Below are positions 4,357 through 12,212 of a DNA stretch of 64,000 nucleotides, one piece after another. The DNA comes from Escherichia coli (GTDB lineage Bacteria; Pseudomonadota; Gammaproteobacteria; Enterobacterales; Enterobacteriaceae), in assembly GCF_048403405.1 (NCBI RefSeq), contig NZ_CP183129.1; one strand, written 5' to 3'. The stretch's first letter is position 1, and every line of letters begins with the position of its first letter. The position numbers and the translations under genes are program-made. The notes under the pieces were generated by a model. That model saw nothing but the letters and a program-made list of their open reading frames with translations. It searched no databases and had not been told where the DNA came from.

Positions 4357-5247
4357 ATGGATGCAAAACAAACGCGGCAGGGCGTATTACTCGCTCTTGC
4401 CGCTTATTTTATTTGGGGTATTGCGCCAGCGTACTTCAAGCTAATTTACTACGTGCCCGCCGATGAGATCCTGACGCATCGCGTGATCTGGTCGTTTTTC
4501 TTTATGGTGGTGCTGATGAGCATCTGCCGCCAGTGGTCCTATTTAAAAACGCTGATTCAGACGCCACAGAAAATTTTTATGCTGGCAGTCTCTGCCGTGC
4601 TGATTGGTGGCAACTGGCTACTGTTTATCTGGGCGGTGAACAATCACCATATGCTGGAAGCGAGCCTTGGTTACTTTATTAACCCGCTGGTGAACATTGT
4701 GCTAGGGATGATTTTCCTCGGCGAGCGATTCCGCCGGATGCAATGGCTGGCGGTGATTCTGGCGATATGTGGCGTGTTGGTTCAGTTGTGGACTTTTGGT
4801 TCACTACCGATTATCGCGCTGGGGCTGGCGTTTAGTTTTGCCTTCTACGGCCTGGTACGCAAGAAGATTGCTGTTGAAGCGCAAACCGGCATGTTAATCG
4901 AAACTATGTGGTTGCTGCCCGTGGCGGCGATTTACCTGTTTGCTATTGCCGACAGCGCAACCAGCCATATGGGGCAAAACCCGATGTCACTGAATTTACT
5001 GCTGATCGCCGCCGGGATTGTCACTACCGTACCGCTGTTGTGTTTTACTGCGGCTGCGACACGCCTGCGTCTCTCAACGTTAGGCTTTTTTCAGTACATT
5101 GGCCCGACGCTGATGTTCCTGCTGGCTGTGACGTTTTATGGTGAAAAACCGGGTGCCGATAAGATGGTGACCTTCGCCTTTATTTGGGTGGCGCTGGCAA
5201 TTTTTGTGATGGATGCGATTTATACGCAGCGTAGAACGTCCAAATAA
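4357..5247 (+). CDS. rarD: EamA/DMT-family transporter RarD
   Basis: 296-aa polytopic membrane ORF; matches RarD; SD upstream. Confidence 0.92.
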   Translation: MDAKQTRQGVLLALAAYFIWGIAPAYFKLIYYVPADEILTHRVIWSFFFMVVLMSICRQWSYLKTLIQTPQKIFMLAVSAVLIGGNWLLFIWAVNNHHMLEASLGYFINPLVNIVLGMIFLGERFRRMQWLAVILAICGVLVQLWTFGSLPIIALGLAFSFAFYGLVRKKIAVEAQTGMLIETMWLLPVAAIYLFAIADSATSHMGQNPMSLNLLLIAAGIVTTVPLLCFTAAATRLRLSTLGFFQYIGPTLMFLLAVTFYGEKPGADKMVTFAFIWVALAIFVMDAIYTQRRTSK

Positions 5248-5557
5248 AAAATAAATATATTCTGAAAAAATATGCCGACTCTTGCATGAGAGTGGGCATA
5301 TTGCCATGCTGACAGGAGACTCACATAAGGAAAGGCAGAATTTCCAGACGTCGTTGTATATTTTCATTTGCTTTAATAAATTTCATTTTTAGTAAATTCA
5401 GCATTATGTTATTAGCGATGAGCAAGACCAATCATTAACCAAGTTCTCTTCAGAATGTAATGAAAAATGTGAAGTGCATTTCTTTTTTAAAATTTTTTTA
5501 GCCTATTATTTCTTATCAAATTAACATTGCCCTTAATTATAAGAAAGGAGAATATAA

Positions 5558-6406
5558 ATGAACAACATATTAGGCTCATCAATTAATATGCCCTGTACAC
5601 TTTTCGAAACTATTACTTTATTCGATGATTTTTCTGCTGATGATATGCAATATGGGGATATGGAAGAACAAGATTTTCTCTCACTCGGCTTAAGCGACAT
5701 CTCTGCAAAAGTTGATCCTTACCGCCTCATTAAATACCATTTTCCTGGGCCGAATTCTACTTATGGTGCTTTTAGTGTTCCAACTTCTGGAACAAAAATA
5801 TCACAAAGTGAATGTATTGATATTTTATTTGCAGAAATGAAAGATCTGGCAAAAATGTTTTCCTTTTTTGGACAATACAAAACACTCATCCAGGATCTGA
5901 TTGATCATTTTAGATATGGAAATGGCAACAGTTTCCATAGCCAGGAATTGAACTTATCTTTTCATGAACGAATAAAAAAATATGATTATAATAGCCCAAT
6001 ACGTGTAATCAAAGAATGTATCGAAAATGATATTTCTTCAACACCTACGATAGGATACCGGCCTCTTCTCCTACAAAAGATTAAGATCGAATTACTTTCA
6101 TCAAGACTAAATAAATTCAATGATTTTAAAGATAATTTTAATGGCCTGGGAATCAGCATTCATGATATCTCAGCTCAAAAAATATCTCTTTTAAGTTTTC
6201 AAAAATACGCTATAGGATGGAGTGCAACAATTCATTTTGTAGCACAGGACCACTTCGGTCTTGATGTAACTGATATCAAAAACAAGACTTACAGCAAATA
6301 TAGATTTTTTCGCATATGGTTCTTTTTACAACGGCATAAAGACTTTGCTTTCAAACCTTTTTTCACCAATTTTAACACTATCGAAAGAATCGAAAATTAT
6401 CTATGA
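5558..6406 (+). CDS. Hypothetical protein, 282 aa, AT-rich accessory gene (islet gene 1); no recognisable family
   Basis: Intact ORF with AAGGAG SD 8 nt upstream of ATG; very low GC relative to flanks; no TM or signal peptide evident; stop overlaps start of next ORF. Confidence 0.7.
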   Translation: MNNILGSSINMPCTLFETITLFDDFSADDMQYGDMEEQDFLSLGLSDISAKVDPYRLIKYHFPGPNSTYGAFSVPTSGTKISQSECIDILFAEMKDLAKMFSFFGQYKTLIQDLIDHFRYGNGNSFHSQELNLSFHERIKKYDYNSPIRVIKECIENDISSTPTIGYRPLLLQKIKIELLSSRLNKFNDFKDNFNGLGISIHDISAQKISLLSFQKYAIGWSATIHFVAQDHFGLDVTDIKNKTYSKYRFFRIWFFLQRHKDFAFKPFFTNFNTIERIENYL

Positions 6407-6894
6407 AAAACAAACTCCAGAAAATTATATTATGTTTATTTCTTCTATGCTGCATCTATAATTTATGGACATTGCGTCCTGTACAGATTTTGTATACATA
6501 CTCTGATGCTGGCAATTCAGTCTTTCTGGTCGTTGATCATCTGCCATGGACTGACAGCGATAAAATAAATTGGTATCTGAAGCATCAGAATGAAATTAAA
6601 AATCAACATCCCCTACCAGAAGGTAGTTGGCATACCTGGTATGTCATTGATATCGGTAATGGCTTCACTGACTATAAAAAATATATCGAAGGGCCGTATG
6701 AAGATCTCTACTGTTTCCCGACAATTAAGAGCAATGATAATTGCATCGTGAAAAATTACTTAATGGTTATTAATGAATACCCTTATCGTAACACTCATAT
6801 TGGTATTAACGATTTTACTGAGTATCAATTAACACAAGAAAATAAAATAGAGCGAGTTTTCAATCCGCATGACTTTAAAAAAGACAATTTTTAG
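6403..6894 (+). CDS. Hypothetical protein, 163 aa, N-terminal hydrophobic anchor or signal (islet gene 2)
   Basis: ATG overlaps upstream stop (ATGA at 6403-6406); N-terminus MKNKLQKIILCLFLLCCIYNLW is hydrophobic; AT-rich; followed by hairpin 6900-6930. Confidence 0.7.
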   Translation: MKNKLQKIILCLFLLCCIYNLWTLRPVQILYTYSDAGNSVFLVVDHLPWTDSDKINWYLKHQNEIKNQHPLPEGSWHTWYVIDIGNGFTDYKKYIEGPYEDLYCFPTIKSNDNCIVKNYLMVINEYPYRNTHIGINDFTEYQLTQENKIERVFNPHDFKKDNF

Positions 6895-6899
6895 AAATA

Positions 6900-6930
6900 A
6901 GCCGGATAAAAAAATAGCTTTATCCGGCAC
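6900..6930. terminator. Bidirectional intrinsic terminator hairpin between islet gene 2 and corA
   Basis: GCCGGATAAAAAAATAGCTTTATCCGGC inverted repeat between convergent ORFs. Confidence 0.55.
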
Positions 6931-6935
6931 TCATA

Positions 6936-7886
6936 TTACAACCAGTTCTTCCGCTTAAAATACAGATACGGTGCCAGGCCCGCGAGGATCATAAAGATAA
7001 TCGCGCCAGGGTAGCCGAAACTCCACTTCAGTTCCGGCATAAACTCAAAGTTCATCCCGTAGCTGGAAGCAACCAGCGTTGGCGGCAGGAACACGACGGA
7101 TACCACCGAGAAGATTTTGATGATGCGGTTCTGCTCGATGTTGATAAAGCCCATCGCCGCCTGCATCAGGAAGTTCACCTTCTGGAACAGGGATTCGTTA
7201 TGCGGCAGCAGGGATTCGATATCTCGCAGGATTTCACGCGCCTGCTCCAGTTGACCACCCGGTAAACGCGCCTTGCGTACCAGGAAGTTGAGCGCACGCT
7301 GGGTATCCATCAGACACAGGCGAACTTTCCAGCCGATATCTTCCAGTTCCGCCAGCGTGGAGAGCGCCTCGTCGTACTCATCGCCCTGATGCCCTTCCAT
7401 AATTACCCGGCTCAACTGCTCCAGGTCGCTGTAGATATTTTCAATTTCATCTGCCAACTGTTCGATTTTGGTTTCGAACAGATCCAGCAGCAGCTCGTAG
7501 GCATTACCGTCTACCATCGACTGGCTACGGGCACGCATACGATATAGACGAAAAGCGGGCAGTTCACGCTCACGCAGAGTAAACAGACGACCATCACGGA
7601 TGGTAAATGCCACAGTGGAGTTACCGGCGTGATCTTCCGCATCTTCAAAGAAGAAGAAGGAGTGAATATGCAGGCCGTCATCGTCTTCAAAGAAACGTGC
7701 CGATGCTTCGATGTCTTCCAGTTCCGGGCGGGTTGCCAGGCTCTGGCCAAGTTCAGATTGTACGCGCAGTCGCTCGTCGTCGTCCGGTTCGACAAGATCA
7801 ATCCATACTGCATTTACAAGGGGTTGTGACTCTTCGACTTCCAGCCGGGTCAGTCGGTTATTTTCCAGTTGAAATGCGCTCAGCAT
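6936..7886 (-). CDS. corA: Magnesium/cobalt transport protein CorA
   Basis: ORF 6936..7901; start at [10 protein letters not shown] (316 aa); C-terminal [10 protein letters not shown] motif present. Confidence 0.93.
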
Positions 7887-8010
7887 GACCGGGACTCCCA
7901 ATGCTTAAAATATCGGACAGTTCGGTGGGCACACAGAAACAAATTGGGTTTCAGACCATTAAACAGCCTGACTCAGCGCGACGGGAAAAATTGAGGTCGC
8001 TGACAACCGC

Positions 8011-8043
8011 TAAGGCTATCAGCAAAAAGGGATAGCCTTAGGA
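8011..8043. promoter_or_regulatory. Stable hairpin in corA upstream/leader region
   Basis: Inverted repeat CTAAGGCTATC..(loop)..GATAGCCTTAG inside the 354-bp corA-yigE divergent region. Confidence 0.35.
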
Positions 8044-8255
8044 GTTGATCCTGGATGACAGGATAGTGAGCCAGTATCTACTGGGTGTGTCCAAGGCGAA
8101 TGTCCTCTTAGAGTGATCGTGCGCGCATGTTACGCCAGCAAAATTTTGCCGTCAACACGCAACAGAACACCACAGAACAATAGTTGAACTTCGCGCTTTT
8201 TGGTACTCGTCAAGGTCGCTAACAGGATAAAAAAATCCCACATCCAGGACCTATA

Positions 8256-9020
8256 ATGGCGCATCGGCTACTCATTGGTAAAGGAATGATCACCTTGAAT
8301 CTCAAACGGATTTTTCTCACCCTCACCTTACTTCCCTTGTTTGCTGTTGCCGCTGATGATTGCGCACTCTCAGATCCGGCGCTGACCGTACAGGCGTATA
8401 TCGTTAATCCTCAAACAGAGCGGGTGAAAATGTACTGGCAAAAAGCCAATGGCGAAGCGTGGGGAACGTTACATGCTCTGCTGGCGGATATTAATAGTCA
8501 GGGTCAGGTGCAGATGGCGATGAACGGCGGCATCTATGATGAAAGCTATGCGCCGCTCGGTTTGTACATCGAAAACGGTCAGCAGAAGGTGGCGTTAAAT
8601 CTCGCTTCAGGTGAAGGGAATTTCTTTATTCGTCCTGGCGGCGTGTTTTATGTCGCGGGAGATAAAGTCGGCATCGTTCGTCTGGATGCCTTTAAAACCA
8701 GTAAAGAGATTCAGTTTGCGGTGCAGTCAGGGCCAATGTTGATGGAAAACGGCGTAATTAATCCGCGTATTCATCCCAACGTCGCCTCACGTAAAATTCG
8801 TAACGGTGTTGGGATTAATAAACAAGGGAACGCCGTGTTTTTGTTGAGCCAGCAGGCGACAAATTTTTATGATTTTGCCTGTTATGCCAAAGCGAAACTG
8901 AACGTTGAGCAGCTGCTTTATCTTGATGGCACAATTTCACATATGTATATGAAAGGCTGGGCAATCCCGTGGCAACGCTATCCTTTTGTTACCATGATTT
9001 CCGTCGAGCGGAAAGGTTAA
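8256..9020 (+). CDS. yigE: DUF2233-family (phosphodiester glycosidase-like) secreted protein YigE
   Basis: 254-aa ORF; hydrophobic signal-like N-terminus (LTLTLLPLFAVAADD); matches YigE as recalled. Confidence 0.8.
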   Translation: MAHRLLIGKGMITLNLKRIFLTLTLLPLFAVAADDCALSDPALTVQAYIVNPQTERVKMYWQKANGEAWGTLHALLADINSQGQVQMAMNGGIYDESYAPLGLYIENGQQKVALNLASGEGNFFIRPGGVFYVAGDKVGIVRLDAFKTSKEIQFAVQSGPMLMENGVINPRIHPNVASRKIRNGVGINKQGNAVFLLSQQATNFYDFACYAKAKLNVEQLLYLDGTISHMYMKGWAIPWQRYPFVTMISVERKG

Positions 9021-9102
9021 GCATTGTACACTCGAGGAGGCCAGACAAACTGGGACTGGCTACACAGTTGGAAAATCATCAGATAAATGAAGGGAAACAA
9101 AA

Positions 9103-10005
9103 ATGAAAAAAACGCTCGCAACGTTATTTTTATTAACGTGTCTGGGATCATCATCCGCCTATGCAGATAACGCTTTGATTTTACAAACTGATTTTAGCCT
9201 GAAAGATGGTGCCGTCTCGGCGATGAAAGGGGTCGCATTCGGCGTTGACCATAATCTTAAAATCTTTGATTTAACACACGAAATTCCACCGTATAACATC
9301 TGGGAAGGCGCTTATCGCCTGTATCAGACTGCCAGTTACTGGCCGCAAGGTTCGGTGTTTGTTAGCGTGGTCGATCCGGGCGTAGGCACTGACCGTAAAT
9401 CGGTGGTGCTAAAAACCAAAAACGGTCAGTACTTCGTTTCACCAGATAACGGTACGCTCACTTTGGTGGCACAAACTCTGGGTATTGATAGCGTCCGGGA
9501 AATCGACGAAAAAGCTAACCGCCTGAAAGGTTCTGAAAAGTCATATACCTTCCACGGTCGTGACGTGTATGCCTACACCGGTGCGCGTCTGGCTTCCGGG
9601 GCGATTACGTTCGAACAGGTGGGGCCAGAGCTTCCTGCAAAAGTTGTCGAACTTTCTTATCAGAAAGCAAAAGCAACAAAAGGTGAAGTGAAGGGCAATA
9701 TCCCGATTCTCGATATTCAGTACGGCAACGTCTGGAGCAATATCAGCGACGAGTTGCTGAATCAGGCAGGAATCAAACTCAACGACACGTTGTGTGTGAC
9801 CATTTCCGAAGGTTCCCAGCAAAAATACGCAGGGAAAATGCCGTATGTCGCAAGCTTCGGCGATGTGCCGGAAGGCCAGCCGATGGTGTATCTGAACAGC
9901 TTATTGAATGTTTCCGTGGCGCTGAATATGGATAATTTTGCGCAGAAACATCAGGTTGCGTCTGGTGCTGACTGGAATATTGATGTGAAGAAGTGCGCTA
10001 AGTAA
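9103..10005 (+). CDS. SAM hydroxide adenosyltransferase (DUF62/fluorinase-chlorinase family)-like protein with N-terminal signal peptide
   Basis: 300-aa ORF; signal peptide MKKTLATLFLLTCLGSSSAYA; family-like motifs LQTDFSLKDGAVSAMKGV, VVDPGVGTDR, FVSPDNGTLT, TFHGRDVYAYTGARLASG. Confidence 0.75.
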   Translation: MKKTLATLFLLTCLGSSSAYADNALILQTDFSLKDGAVSAMKGVAFGVDHNLKIFDLTHEIPPYNIWEGAYRLYQTASYWPQGSVFVSVVDPGVGTDRKSVVLKTKNGQYFVSPDNGTLTLVAQTLGIDSVREIDEKANRLKGSEKSYTFHGRDVYAYTGARLASGAITFEQVGPELPAKVVELSYQKAKATKGEVKGNIPILDIQYGNVWSNISDELLNQAGIKLNDTLCVTISEGSQQKYAGKMPYVASFGDVPEGQPMVYLNSLLNVSVALNMDNFAQKHQVASGADWNIDVKKCAK

Positions 10006-10014
10006 GGTGCTGAT

Positions 10015-10046
10015 GCGGAATGCGGTGTGGCGCACCGCATTCCGCA
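10015..10046. terminator. Hairpin between convergent DUF62-like gene and uvrD
   Basis: GGAATGCGGTGTGGCGCACCGCATTCC palindrome. Confidence 0.5.
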
Positions 10047-10049
10047 ACG

Positions 10050-12212
10050 TCACACCGTCTCCAACCGGGCGTAAGCCGCCACCAGCCATTTAATACCCTG
10101 GCCCTGGAACGCCACCTGCAAACGGCTATGCTCACCGCTGCCTTCCATATTGACGATGGTGCCTTCACCAAACTTAGCGTGGCGTACGCGCTGGCCGAGC
10201 TTGTAGCCGCTGTCGTTCTCGACCATCGGCGTACCCATCCGTTGATGGCTGACCGGGCGGCTTACCGTGGCGCGCAGGCGCACCTCTTCCACACACTCTT
10301 CCGGCAGCTCGCCGATAAAGCGCGATGGGCGATGGTAAACCTCTTTGCCATACAGACGGCGGGTTTCCGCGTAGGTCAGCGTCAGTTTCTGCATCGCGCG
10401 GGTTACGCCAACGTAGGCCAGACGGCGTTCTTCTTCCAGACGTCCGCCTTCATCCAGCGACATCTGGCTTGGGAACATGCCCTCTTCCATACCGACGATA
10501 AACACCTGCGGGAACTCCAGCCCTTTCGCCGAGTGTAGCGTCATCAACTGCACCGCATCCTGCCAGGTATCCGCCTGCCCCTCGCCCGCTTCCAGTGCCG
10601 CATGGGAGAGGAACGCCTGCAGCGGCATTAAATCTTCGTCTTCTTCGTTGTAGCTGAACTGGCGCGTCGCCGTTACCAGTTCCTCTAAGTTTTCGATACG
10701 CGTCTGGCCTTTTTCGCCTTTCTCCTGCTCGTACATGGTGCGCAGGCCGGAGTCTTTAATTACCCGGTCAGTCTGTACATGCAGCGGCATATCGGCAGTT
10801 TCCTGCGCTAAGGCGTCGATCAGTTCCATAAACCGCTGTAAGGCACTGGCAGCACGTCCGGCGAGGGCTTTTTCCTGCAACAGTTCACGACATGCCTGCC
10901 AGAGTGTTAACTGGCGATCGCGCGATGTCTGACGTACCACGTCCAGCGTCCGGTCACCAATACCCCGCGTTGGTGTATTCACCACGCGCTCAAAGGCCGC
11001 GTCGTCATTACGGTTGGCAATCAGGCGCAGATACGAGAGCGCATCTTTGATTTCCTGGCGTTCGAAGAATCGCATCCCGCCGTAAATACGGTACGGCATA
11101 CTTGCCTGTAACAGTGCTTCTTCCAGCACACGCGACTGGGCGTTGCTGCGGTAGAGAATGGCGCACTCGGCAAGCGCCCCGCCGTTGTCCTGCCAGGTTT
11201 TGATACGGTTAACCACAAAACGCGCTTCATCGAGTTCGTTAAAAGCGCAATAGAGGGAAATAGGCTCACCATCCGCGCCATCGGTCCACAGTTTTTTACC
11301 CAAACGCCCGTTGTTGTTTTCAATCAGGGCGTTCGCGGCGCTCAGAATATTGCTGGTAGAGCGGTAGTTCTGCTCCAGACGGATAGTTTCAGCACCGGGG
11401 AAATCATTGAGGAAACGCTGAATATTCTCCACCTGCGCTCCACGCCAGCCGTAGATTGACTGATCGTCATCGCCAACGATCATCACTTTGCCGGTATCGC
11501 CCGCCAGCAGGCGGATCCACGCATACTGAATGTTGTTGGTATCCTGGAATTCGTCCACCAGGATATTGGTAAACCGTTCGCGATAGTGCTGAAGGATATG
11601 CGGCTTGTTAAGCCACAACTCGTGAGCACGTAGCAGCAGCTCGGCGAAGTCCACCAGGCCCGCGCGGTCACACGCTTCCTGATACGCCTGATACACCTTC
11701 TGCCAGGTCTGCTCCACCGGATTACCGTAGCTTTGAATATGATGTGGACGCAGGCCTTCATCTTTCTGGCTGTTGATGTACCACATTGCCTGGCGCGGCG
11801 GCCACTGCTTCTCGTCGAGGTTCATCGCCTTGATTAGGCGTTTGAGCAGGCGTAGCTGGTCCTCGCTGTCGAGGATCTGAAAATCCTGCGGCAGATTGGC
11901 GTCCATATGGTGCGCACGCAGCAGACGGTGCGCCAGCCCGTGGAAGGTGCCGACCCACATGCCGCCCTGGCTGGTGCCCATCAGCTGCCCGATACGATGA
12001 CGCATCTCCGCCGCCGCTTTGTTGGTAAACGTTACCGCCATAATCGAATATGGCGAGCAGTTTTCCACGCTCATCAGCCAGGCGATACGGTGCACCAGTA
12101 CGCGCGTCTTACCACTGCCCGCGCCCGCCAGCACCAGAAGGTTGCTGCGTGGCGCGGCCACCGCTTCGCGCTGTTTGTCATTAAGGCTGTCGAGCAGGTA
12201 AGAAACGTCCAT
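10050..12212 (-). CDS. uvrD: DNA helicase II UvrD
   Basis: ORF 10050..12401; true start at internal MDVSYLLDSLNDKQREAVAAP (720 aa); Walker A AGAGSGKT. Confidence 0.95.
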   Translation of the reverse strand: MDVSYLLDSLNDKQREAVAAPRSNLLVLAGAGSGKTRVLVHRIAWLMSVENCSPYSIMAVTFTNKAAAEMRHRIGQLMGTSQGGMWVGTFHGLAHRLLRAHHMDANLPQDFQILDSEDQLRLLKRLIKAMNLDEKQWPPRQAMWYINSQKDEGLRPHHIQSYGNPVEQTWQKVYQAYQEACDRAGLVDFAELLLRAHELWLNKPHILQHYRERFTNILVDEFQDTNNIQYAWIRLLAGDTGKVMIVGDDDQSIYGWRGAQVENIQRFLNDFPGAETIRLEQNYRSTSNILSAANALIENNNGRLGKKLWTDGADGEPISLYCAFNELDEARFVVNRIKTWQDNGGALAECAILYRSNAQSRVLEEALLQASMPYRIYGGMRFFERQEIKDALSYLRLIANRNDDAAFERVVNTPTRGIGDRTLDVVRQTSRDRQLTLWQACRELLQEKALAGRAASALQRFMELIDALAQETADMPLHVQTDRVIKDSGLRTMYEQEKGEKGQTRIENLEELVTATRQFSYNEEDEDLMPLQAFLSHAALEAGEGQADTWQDAVQLMTLHSAKGLEFPQVFIVGMEEGMFPSQMSLDEGGRLEEERRLAYVGVTRAMQKLTLTYAETRRLYGKEVYHRPSRFIGELPEECVEEVRLRATVSRPVSHQRMGTPMVENDSGYKLGQRVRHAKFGEGTIVNMEGSGEHSRLQVAFQGQGIKWLVAAYARLETV

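Follow-up and report, generated by a model that had tools for sequence, protein, structure and literature searches.

The window analysed here, a 64,000-nucleotide stretch of Escherichia coli DNA (NCBI RefSeq assembly GCF_048403405.1, contig NZ_CP183129.1), carries between yigE and uvrD a gene labelled by RefSeq as 'SAM hydrolase/SAM-dependent halogenase family protein' (SAM, S-adenosylmethionine). Its 300-residue product belongs to the DUF62 family and, judging from its sequence, is probably an exported and catalytically competent DUF62 hydrolase. The features of the locus are listed in Table 1.

The gene and its setting

The open reading frame (ORF) begins with the ATG at 9103 and ends with the stop codon at 10003–10005. 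A Shine-Dalgarno-like AAGGGA (9090–9095) lies 7 nucleotides (nt) 5' of the start codon, and the approximately 10 nt 5' of the ATG are also alike in Helicobacter pylori (discussed below). The local gene order is pldA-yigI-rarD-(YPO3983 family)-(DUF943)-corA-ysgD-yigE-(DUF62 gene)-uvrD-yigB-xerC, and it is identical in E. coli TUM14771; uvrD is convergent with the DUF62 gene, its stop codon lying at 10050. The DUF62 gene has a GC content of 0.476 and a GC content at third codon positions (GC3) of 0.515, compared with a GC3 of 0.61–0.69 for the neighbouring core genes and a GC content of 0.52 for the window.

A consensus scan of positions 7850–10150 identified neither a sigma-70 promoter nor an intrinsic terminator in the spacer that follows yigE (9021–9102), and the total counts for the scanned region were no better than those for shuffled sequence. 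The inverted repeat downstream of the gene was not called as a terminator because it has no T-run; the corresponding spacer of K-12 holds a repetitive extragenic palindromic (REP) element. No Rfam element was found inside the region of the gene in the window, and neither the DUF62 protein nor its neighbours match a PADLOC defence-system model at E ≤ 0.01.

Table 1. Features of the DUF62 locus, with positions in the window.
Feature	Position	Strand	Basis
Gene for predicted exported DUF62/SAM-hydrolase-like protein	9103..10005	+	ORF list, Pfam, RefSeq name, AlphaFold2 model, Foldseek
Codons 1–21, predicted Sec signal peptide MKKTLATLFLLTCLGSSSAYA, predicted cut after A21	9103..9165	+	Sequence, alignment, AlphaFold2 model, dN
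Mature enzyme domain (predicted), residues 22–300	9166..10002	+	Pfam coverage of residues 26–291; D30 and triad conserved
Codon D91, triad Asp (PH0463 D68)	9373..9375	+	Alignment with PH0463
Codon R98, triad Arg (PH0463 R75)	9394..9396	+	Alignment with PH0463
Codon H151, triad His (PH0463 H127)	9553..9555	+	Alignment with PH0463
Codon C231, putative disulfide partner	9793..9795	+	Cys covariation; strand 229–236 in AlphaFold2 model
Codon C298, putative disulfide partner	9994..9996	+	Cys covariation; after last beta-strand (288–297) in AlphaFold2 model
Segment shared with HP0709 (84.7% nucleotide identity), the transferred unit	9093..10011	+	blastn of window against H. pylori locus L002
Spacer between yigE and gene, 82 nt, with Shine-Dalgarno-like motif	9021..9102	+	Sequence
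yigE, phosphodiester glycosidase/NAGPA family with signal-like N-terminus; adjacent gene rather than a demonstrated partner	8256..9020	+	ORF list, Pfam
Perfect 13-bp inverted repeat with 5-nt loop, between convergent stops of gene and uvrD	10015..10045	.	Sequence

Family, fold and active site

All of the DUF62 motifs named in the initial annotation (TDFS..DGAVSAMKGV, VVDPGVGT, PDNGTLT and TFHGRDVYAYTGA) are found in the 300-residue protein, and the family assignment is confirmed by hidden Markov model searches: SAM_HAT_N (PF01887) matches residues 26–174 with an E-value of 4.9e-53 and SAM_HAT_C (PF20257) matches residues 198–291 with an E-value of 3.9e-18, so that both DUF62 domains are present. 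Sequence matches in the PDB include Thermotoga maritima 2zbu (E = 1e-43) as well as PH0463 of P. horikoshii, MJ1651, SalL and ClA1 (approximately 1e-33 to 1e-36). An AlphaFold2 model built on 60 relatives has a predicted local distance difference test (pLDDT) score of 91.4, and Foldseek comparison of this model gives target-normalised template modelling (TM) scores of 0.85–0.90 to 2zbu, SalL, ClA1 and PH0463 (E = 2e-30 to 2zbu). A two-domain fluorinase-like fold is assigned on the basis of this model and comparison.

The catalytic residues can be read from an alignment with PH0463, the sequence of which was verified against PDB 1wu8: the D68/R75/H127 triad of PH0463 aligns to D91/R98/H151 of the window protein. 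D91 and R98 are invariant and H151 is nearly invariant among the 60 relatives. In relatives with at least 55% identity, D91 and R98 are always kept, as is H151 except in Synergistota-type loci (L043, L050, L055, L056 and L063), which have Phe at this position. The ribose-binding D30 of the TDF motif is invariant in the alignments, and little or no variation is seen at D35, D204, N209 and S266; by spacing, we take these last four to be the counterparts of fluorinase D21, D210, N215 and S269, presumably contacts of the methionine amino group and of adenine.

The Asp-Arg-His triad is strictly conserved in DUF62 hydrolases, where it activates the water nucleophile, and is absent from halogenases (PMC10491745). 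In our alignment, Tyr, Thr and Tyr occupy the corresponding positions of the chlorinase ClA1, and the window protein scores only 83.9 bits against the fluorinase model TIGR04507 (cut-off 400). By its intact triad, the window protein is classed as the hydrolase type and not the halogenase type.

Some signal-bearing relatives lack the Asp-Arg-His triad, having combinations such as GSY, DTL, NDA or DEY instead (50%-identity cluster representatives P0146, P0154, P0187, P0191, P0192, P0193, P0231, P0255 and P0263). From this loss, some exported members may be non-catalytic or may carry out other chemistry.

N-terminal export signal

Crystallised homologues align to the window protein only from residues 23–29, and the 21-residue N-terminal extension is absent from all of them. 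This extension had been proposed to be a Sec signal peptide, which is supported by both a rule-based reading and sequence comparison. The segment MKKTLATLFLLTCLGSSSAYA, followed by DN, consists of an n-region MKK (charge +2), an uncharged h-region TLATLFLLTCLG from T4 to G15 (best-window Kyte-Doolittle mean of 2.47) and a c-region SSSAYA with Ala at both -3 and -1. It thus has the features of a substrate of Sec and signal peptidase I (SPase I): a charged n-region, a hydrophobic h-region of 8–15 residues and small residues at -3 and -1. In the AlphaFold2 model, residues 2–14 form a lone detached helix with a pLDDT of 58–66, and the domain begins at residue 24.

The extension is characteristic of the relatives of this protein, which were gathered by scanning one genome per species. 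All of the approximately 80 relatives with at least 55% identity have a hydrophobic N-terminal extension immediately before the conserved '..AL(V/I)xQTDF' start (at locus L038 the ORF call is truncated, though the tblastn match covers residues 1–298), and at their ends lie either A-x-A-like sites or lipoboxes (LLTAC, for example). The species concerned belong to the Proteobacteria, Bacteroidota, Verrucomicrobiota, Planctomycetota, Synergistota, Firmicutes (Tissierellia), Fusobacteriota and Thermotogota. A signal-like N-terminus is found in 52 of the 94 near-full-length 50%-identity cluster representatives nearest to the query, and in 40 the domain begins at the N-terminus itself. On a neighbour-joining tree of 84 taxa the signal state is clumped, requiring a minimum of 9 changes, and all members of the clade that holds the query are signal-like.

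The rates of nonsynonymous (dN) and synonymous (dS) substitution are also informative. Between E. coli and H. pylori, dN is 0.23 in the signal region (dS 0.79) and 0.039 in the mature part, with dS approximately 0.8 in both; the signal region evolves roughly 6x faster than the mature part and is still constrained. It would therefore be a translated segment of loosely constrained sequence, as expected of a signal region.

The lipobox pattern [LVI][ASTVI][GAS]C does not occur in the E. coli protein, in which the nearest candidate is L-L-T-C13. Because this candidate has Thr at -1, it is a poor lipobox; furthermore, Gln takes the place of Cys13 in H. pylori SA213A, and Aeromonas and Edwardsiella have no such Cys. 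Cleavage by SPase I is the likelier outcome on both counts. True lipoboxes are found in some distant relatives (LLTAC in L053 and LALAGC in P0195).

A further observation concerns two cysteines. C231 and C298 are both Cys in 36/82 sequences and both non-Cys in 46/82, and one is never found alone. The holders of the pair constitute a whole proteobacterial subclade: Escherichia, Helicobacter, Aeromonas, Edwardsiella, Pasteurellaceae, Neisseriales, Thorsellia and one Desulfobacterales metagenome-assembled genome (MAG). This covariation suggests a putative periplasmic disulfide, Cys231-Cys298, that would fit an oxidising compartment.

Five independent lines of sequence evidence thus suggest export: the n-h-c rules, the add-on nature of the extension, its conservation, the dN pattern and the Cys pair. 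The predicted, clade-wide signal departs from the cytoplasmic location of all characterised SAM hydrolases and, as had been noted at the outset, is unusual for the DUF62 family as the literature describes it.

Distribution in E. coli and other Enterobacterales

The initial annotation considered the gene to be accessory and absent from K-12, and both points are upheld by a survey of the yigE-uvrD junction in 5426 complete E. coli genomes. The gene is present in 2413 of these (44%), always as a single chromosomal copy in a yigE-uvrD interval of 1029 bp. A K-12-type junction is found in 3012 genomes, and the two states together account for 5425/5426. In MG1655 the yigE-uvrD spacer is 146 bp long, with a REP element and no remnant of the gene; homology between the window and K-12 breaks exactly at the yigE stop codon and resumes at approximately 10027. 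Alleles within E. coli are fairly deep (dS approximately 0.23). Local hyper-divergence was considered and rejected, as the gene is just slightly more diverged than its flanks in a comparison of two strains. The presence/absence polymorphism (2413 versus 3012 genomes) provides natural isogenic-like comparisons.

Among species representatives of the Enterobacteriaceae, only E. coli and a cryptic Escherichia clade were found to carry the gene. Other carriers in the Enterobacterales are Edwardsiella piscicida (73% identity) and Thorsellia anophelis (69%). The E. piscicida orthologue (within region 5183–10736 of locus L061) is flanked by a LysE/RhtB-like gene and recQ, and rarD is close by. This slot differs from that in E. 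coli, yet the broad neighbourhood (rarD...uvrD, recQ) is the same, which hints at an old residence in the Enterobacterales with rearrangement. E. coli HS-02 has a frameshifted copy of the gene with 81% identity (L087, 3915–4772); yigF in this strain has an internal stop, and the quality of the assembly may be poor.

Carriage on plasmids was rejected: the close matches among plasmid records (E. coli and Aeromonas) are chromosome-sized, at approximately 4.9 Mb, and are presumably mislabelled, while the others have less than 50% identity.

A second polymorphism of the presence/alternative kind lies approximately 2 kb from the DUF62 gene. Between rarD and corA (5558–6894), the window has a low-GC (0.33) two-gene cassette encoding a YPO3983-family protein (TIGR03034, E = 7e-120) and a DUF943 protein, where K-12 carries yigF-yigG. 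No defence-system match was obtained for this cassette.

HP0709 of Helicobacter pylori

The closest relatives outside Escherichia are found in Helicobacter. Hundreds of H. pylori and H. acinonychis proteins, each exactly 300 residues long, were retrieved from the protein database with 89–91% identity to the window protein. The locus order in H. pylori is flgR-uvrA-hopE-rsmH-HP0708-(gene)-homA-HD protein-rpoN; from this position the gene is HP0709/jhp0648 (UniProt O25413), as confirmed by primer names in PMC6083042. It occupies 8001–8903 in loci L002–L005 and 4814–5710 in L009. HP0709 has 90% amino-acid and 85% nucleotide identity to the E. coli gene, the similarity being confined to the gene itself (9093–10011), and has a GC content of 0.43 within a locus of 0.38. 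It is apparently widespread in H. pylori, since one 90%-identity cluster comprises 2579 member sequences.

Between E. coli and H. pylori, dS is 0.85–1.4 and dN approximately 0.05–0.07 (dN/dS approximately 0.05–0.06); the two deepest sampled H. pylori copies differ by a dS of 0.52. In the species-level scan, no carriers were found in the Campylobacterota beyond H. pylori and H. acinonychis. The next relatives are those of approximately 20 Aeromonas species (72–76% identity), followed by Edwardsiella, Pasteurellaceae, Thorsellia and Neisseriales MAGs (65–75%). Because the nearest relatives of HP0709 are gammaproteobacterial, the gene has crossed between phyla. The simplest reading of these comparisons is a single and not recent transfer of the lone gene from an Escherichia-like gammaproteobacterium to H. 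pylori/H. acinonychis, followed by purifying selection.

Carriage on a phage was rejected as well. The close match annotated as 'Helicobacter phage Pt11444_1' (PQ159899.1, L089) includes chromosomal flank (a topoisomerase-annotated gene, flgR, uvrA, rsmH and HP0709). Approximately 12 kb of this record, including hopE, HP0708 and homA, is ordinary H. pylori chromosome, indicating that its boundaries are over-extended. A second Helicobacter phage record gives just a partial match with 54% identity. A hotspot of prophage integration has been reported at HP0709/homA (PMC11321410).

HP0709 has appeared in three types of study. A non-synonymous single nucleotide polymorphism producing D49N was associated with gastric cancer in a bacterial genome-wide association study (GWAS), in which the locus was poorly annotated (PMC6090961); the protein was detected in an outer membrane vesicle (OMV) proteome that also lists ribosomal proteins (PMC8756444); and a serum antibody response to it has been reported (PMC11394471). 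The last two reports point to expression of HP0709 in H. pylori. Within the limited literature covered, HP0709 is treated in these GWAS, OMV and serology contexts only, with no mention of a signal peptide, export or a relationship to E. coli.

Neighbourhoods in other relatives

All-against-all clustering of the ORFs within 6 kb of the gene in 81 loci revealed no partner conserved across phyla: the only groups obtained were syntenic genes within the genus Aeromonas and ubiquitous families, LysR regulators and DEAD-box helicases among them. An RNase T2-like gene neighbours the DUF62 gene in 17 Aeromonas species, deoB (phosphopentomutase) does so in Neisseriales MAGs and an NCS1 nucleobase permease gene does so in a Synergistaceae MAG. 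In two Fervidobacterium MAGs (L073, 5971–7890; L080, 5953–7875), a signal-bearing DUF62 protein of approximately 640 residues carries, as a fusion, an additional SAM_HAT_C domain and a domain of the tyrosine-phosphatase family (Y_phosphatase3) that contains an HCxxGxxR motif. This fusion may be a clue to phosphorylated nucleoside substrates for exported enzymes. Together, the scattered neighbours and the phosphatase fusion fit a nucleoside-salvage theme, though this fit is anecdotal.

In a single case, Haemophilus paracuniculus (L025, 4742–5749), the gene directly upstream encodes a signal-bearing protein of the metallo-beta-lactamase fold that resembles AidB-type N-acyl-homoserine-lactone lactonases (E = 5e-47, below the cut-off). 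Spontaneous breakdown of SAM also yields homoserine lactone.

From these comparisons, the gene is a stand-alone, horizontally moving unit that would encode a self-contained exported enzyme.

Proposed function and alternatives

The function of this protein is uncharacterised, as the initial annotation held. That annotation argued from the predicted export to a substrate other than SAM, a step that is neither required nor supported: the triad is conserved with that of PH0463, a characterised SAM hydrolase. Given this conservation and the presumed match of the ligand-contacting positions, the substrate would be SAM or a very close analogue. With a hydrolase active site intact, hydrolysis of an adenosyl-sulfonium outside of the cytoplasm is the most economical proposal.

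We therefore favour, with a probability of roughly 0.4–0.45, a Sec-exported hydrolase-type DUF62 enzyme that hydrolyses SAM outside of the cytoplasm for the salvage of adenosine and methionine. In this scheme, the 21-residue signal peptide would be removed after AYA, and the 279-residue domain would fold in the periplasm, held by the Cys231-Cys298 disulfide in the proteobacterial subclade. The mature protein is probably a trimer, like other family members. The Asp91-Arg98-His151 triad would activate water for bimolecular nucleophilic substitution (SN2) at C5' of an adenosyl-sulfonium, most simply SAM in either sulfonium epimer. The products, adenosine and L-methionine, would then be imported by existing nucleoside and methionine transporters, such that the protein would act as a periplasmic salvage enzyme converting a non-importable compound into importable ones.

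H. pylori needs methionine. It also has no de novo purine synthesis and depends on salvage (PMC13328217). These dependences would explain the retention of the gene in H. pylori.

Several points weigh against a role in SAM salvage. The window protein falls short of the NCBIfam equivalog models for (R)-SAM hydrolases (131.5 bits versus a cut-off of 350 for NF058624 and 116.9 versus 470 for NF053629), and scores so far under the cut-offs do not bear out equivalence with the characterised (R)-SAM hydrolases. No SAM, purine or T-box riboswitch was found in 20 non-proteobacterial loci (Firmicutes, Fusobacteria, Thermotogota, Synergistota and Bacteroidota; the gene with up to 6 kb on each side), and no regulatory site was recognised upstream of the gene in E. 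coli. More than half of E. coli genomes lack the gene, so any benefit must be conditional. SAM may not reach a useful concentration in the periplasm or gut lumen. The detection of HP0709 in OMVs is no proof of an envelope location, since ribosomal proteins are present in the same proteome. Finally, no functional study of an exported DUF62 protein was found in the literature covered, which was limited and lacked key DUF62 papers.

The alternative that best survives is an exported enzyme with another substrate or nucleophile: decarboxylated SAM, 5'-halo-5'-deoxyadenosine, S-adenosylhomocysteine (SAH), methylthioadenosine (MTA) or an adenosyl-cofactor fragment, or chloride as in the chlorinases. 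The missed equivalog cut-offs are compatible with this, as is the similarity to the chlorinases SalL and ClA1 (E approximately 1e-35), which equals that to several hydrolases. In addition, the triad-less exported relatives (such as P0146, P0154, P0187 and P0191–P0193) indicate that the clade is chemically diverse, and chloride is abundant in the stomach and gut. Yet the retention of D91 and R98 in all relatives with at least 55% identity, and of H151 in all but the Synergistota-type loci, argues against it, given that halogenases have no such triad. From general chemistry, the thioethers SAH and MTA are poor leaving groups for SN2 displacement, and D35 and D204, which we assume to match the fluorinase residues that bind the methionine amino group, are nearly invariant. 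We consider another substrate or nucleophile unlikely.

A broader form of the salvage proposal is that exported DUF62 enzymes are a widespread and hitherto unrecognised system for harvesting extracellular SAM or related sulfonium nucleosides. HP0709 would then feed the purine and methionine needs of H. pylori from host SAM. Its use of the methyl donor and its release of adenosine at the gastric epithelium could add to the changes in host methylation and immunity that accompany gastric cancer, and the D49N association would agree with this. This extension is speculative and, in our judgement, improbable.

HP0709 and its relatives might instead be effectors that act on other cells, depleting SAM or raising adenosine around host cells or competitors, possibly through OMVs in H. 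pylori. The presence of HP0709 in OMV preparations, the antibodies in infected people, the D49N association (all cited above) and the retention of the gene under purifying selection in a host-restricted pathogen could be read in this way. All of this support is circumstantial: many cytoplasmic contaminants occur in OMV proteomes, and H. pylori GWAS matches are prone to effects of linkage and population structure. Moreover, the clade is common in free-living Chitinophaga, Verrucomicrobia and Aeromonas of soil and water, which argues for a general housekeeping or salvage role. We consider an effector role very unlikely.

An ordinary cytoplasmic (R)-SAM repair hydrolase with a mis-called start or a non-exporting N-terminal helix is also very unlikely. 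The characterised members are cytoplasmic and are proposed to clear the inactive (R,S)-SAM epimer (PMC10491745), and their catalytic residues are identical to those of the window protein. Against this, the sole alternative in-frame start, M41, lies inside the conserved domain, and the Shine-Dalgarno-like motif precedes M1. The extension is also kept in kind over approximately 80 species, lipobox versions included, and is under purifying selection (dN 0.23 versus dS 0.79), and the covarying Cys pair is limited to the proteobacterial subclade.

Equally unlikely is the proposal of the initial annotation that YigE and the DUF62 protein act in two successive periplasmic steps on a common substrate derived from a nucleoside. 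YigE matches the Pfam NAGPA/phosphodiester glycosidase family (PF09992, E = 2e-18). As had been described, the two genes lie on the same strand, 82 nt apart, and YigE also has a signal-like segment (MITLNLKRIFLTLTLLPLFAVA, followed by ADD), so that both proteins have signal-like N-termini. The GC contents of the two genes are similarly atypical (0.475 and 0.476, versus 0.52 for the window). Since the spacer has no promoter or terminator consensus, co-transcription in E. coli is possible. The proposed pathway is nevertheless largely refuted by the distribution of the two genes. A YigE/DUF2233 homologue is found within 6 kb of the gene in just 2/80 species loci, both of them Escherichia; yigE is kept at the K-12-type junction of the sampled genomes that lack the DUF62 gene (3012 genomes have this junction); H. 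pylori shares the DUF62 gene alone, without yigE; and in E. coli strain C325 (L088, 1734–2500) yigE is frameshifted next to a DUF62 gene that is intact. The two genes are paired by position alone, and only in Escherichia.

The annotated start of yigE merits a separate remark. A TATAAT hexamer (8252–8257) overlaps the annotated start codon at 8256, and the signal-like segment starts only at Met11 (ATG at 8286); this downstream ATG may be the true start of yigE.

Significance

The DUF62 family, its chemistry and the family-level annotation of this gene are already known. What appears to be undescribed is the existence of a large, coherent exported DUF62 clade, its putative disulfide and the sharing of the gene between E. 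coli and H. pylori. SAM-cleaving DUF62 enzymes have so far been discussed only as cytoplasmic enzymes that act as halogenases or serve in the repair of the inactive SAM epimer. A large exported clade would imply either that SAM or a near analogue matters to bacteria outside the cell, as a nutrient or a signal, or that the fold has an undiscovered extracytoplasmic substrate. The E. coli gene offers a tractable model for HP0709, which is both an unexplained gastric-cancer GWAS match and an antibody target. The pair also represents a clear case, on the sequence comparisons given above, of transfer between a gut gammaproteobacterium and a gastric epsilonproteobacterium with apparent retention of function.

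Comparison with known systems

HP0709 is the system most similar to the E. coli gene: both encode 300 residues and have the same signal architecture (MKKTILALFLSTCIGLSSVHA, followed by DN, in H. pylori), the same triad and the same Cys pair. They differ in setting, as HP0709 lies in the order rsmH-HP0708-HP0709-homA beside a prophage hotspot, and HP0709 has a lower GC content and an apparently wider prevalence.

The DUF62 hydrolases (PH0463, SaDUF62 and StDUF62 of Salinispora, MJ1651 and T. maritima 2zbu) share the two-domain fold (target-normalised TM scores of 0.85–0.89; E = 1e-43 to 1e-33), and their Asp-Arg-His triad and ribose-binding Asp are identical to those of the window protein. These hydrolases are cytoplasmic and start at the catalytic domain, whereas the window protein adds a 21-residue predicted export signal and a C-terminal tail with the covarying Cys pair, and scores far under the equivalog cut-offs. 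The role of the DUF62 hydrolases in (R,S)-SAM repair makes no sense outside of the cytoplasm.

The halogenases (the fluorinase FlA and the chlorinases SalL, ClA1 and ClA2) have the same fold and the same chemistry of adenosyl transfer from SAM. They are cytoplasmic, have no triad (PMC10491745) and are encoded in natural-product clusters, unlike the stand-alone window gene. The chlorinases share with the window protein the Gly that follows the triad-His position (G152).

By analogy, the proposed logic is that of UshA (a 5'-nucleotidase/UDP-sugar hydrolase), CpdB and AphA, the periplasmic nucleotide-salvage hydrolases of Enterobacteria: a soluble enzyme exported through Sec hydrolyses a charged, non-importable compound to an importable nucleoside. 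The folds of these enzymes are unrelated to that of DUF62 proteins, and they hydrolyse phosphoesters, in contrast to the C5'-S cleavage that would be catalysed by the proposed enzyme.

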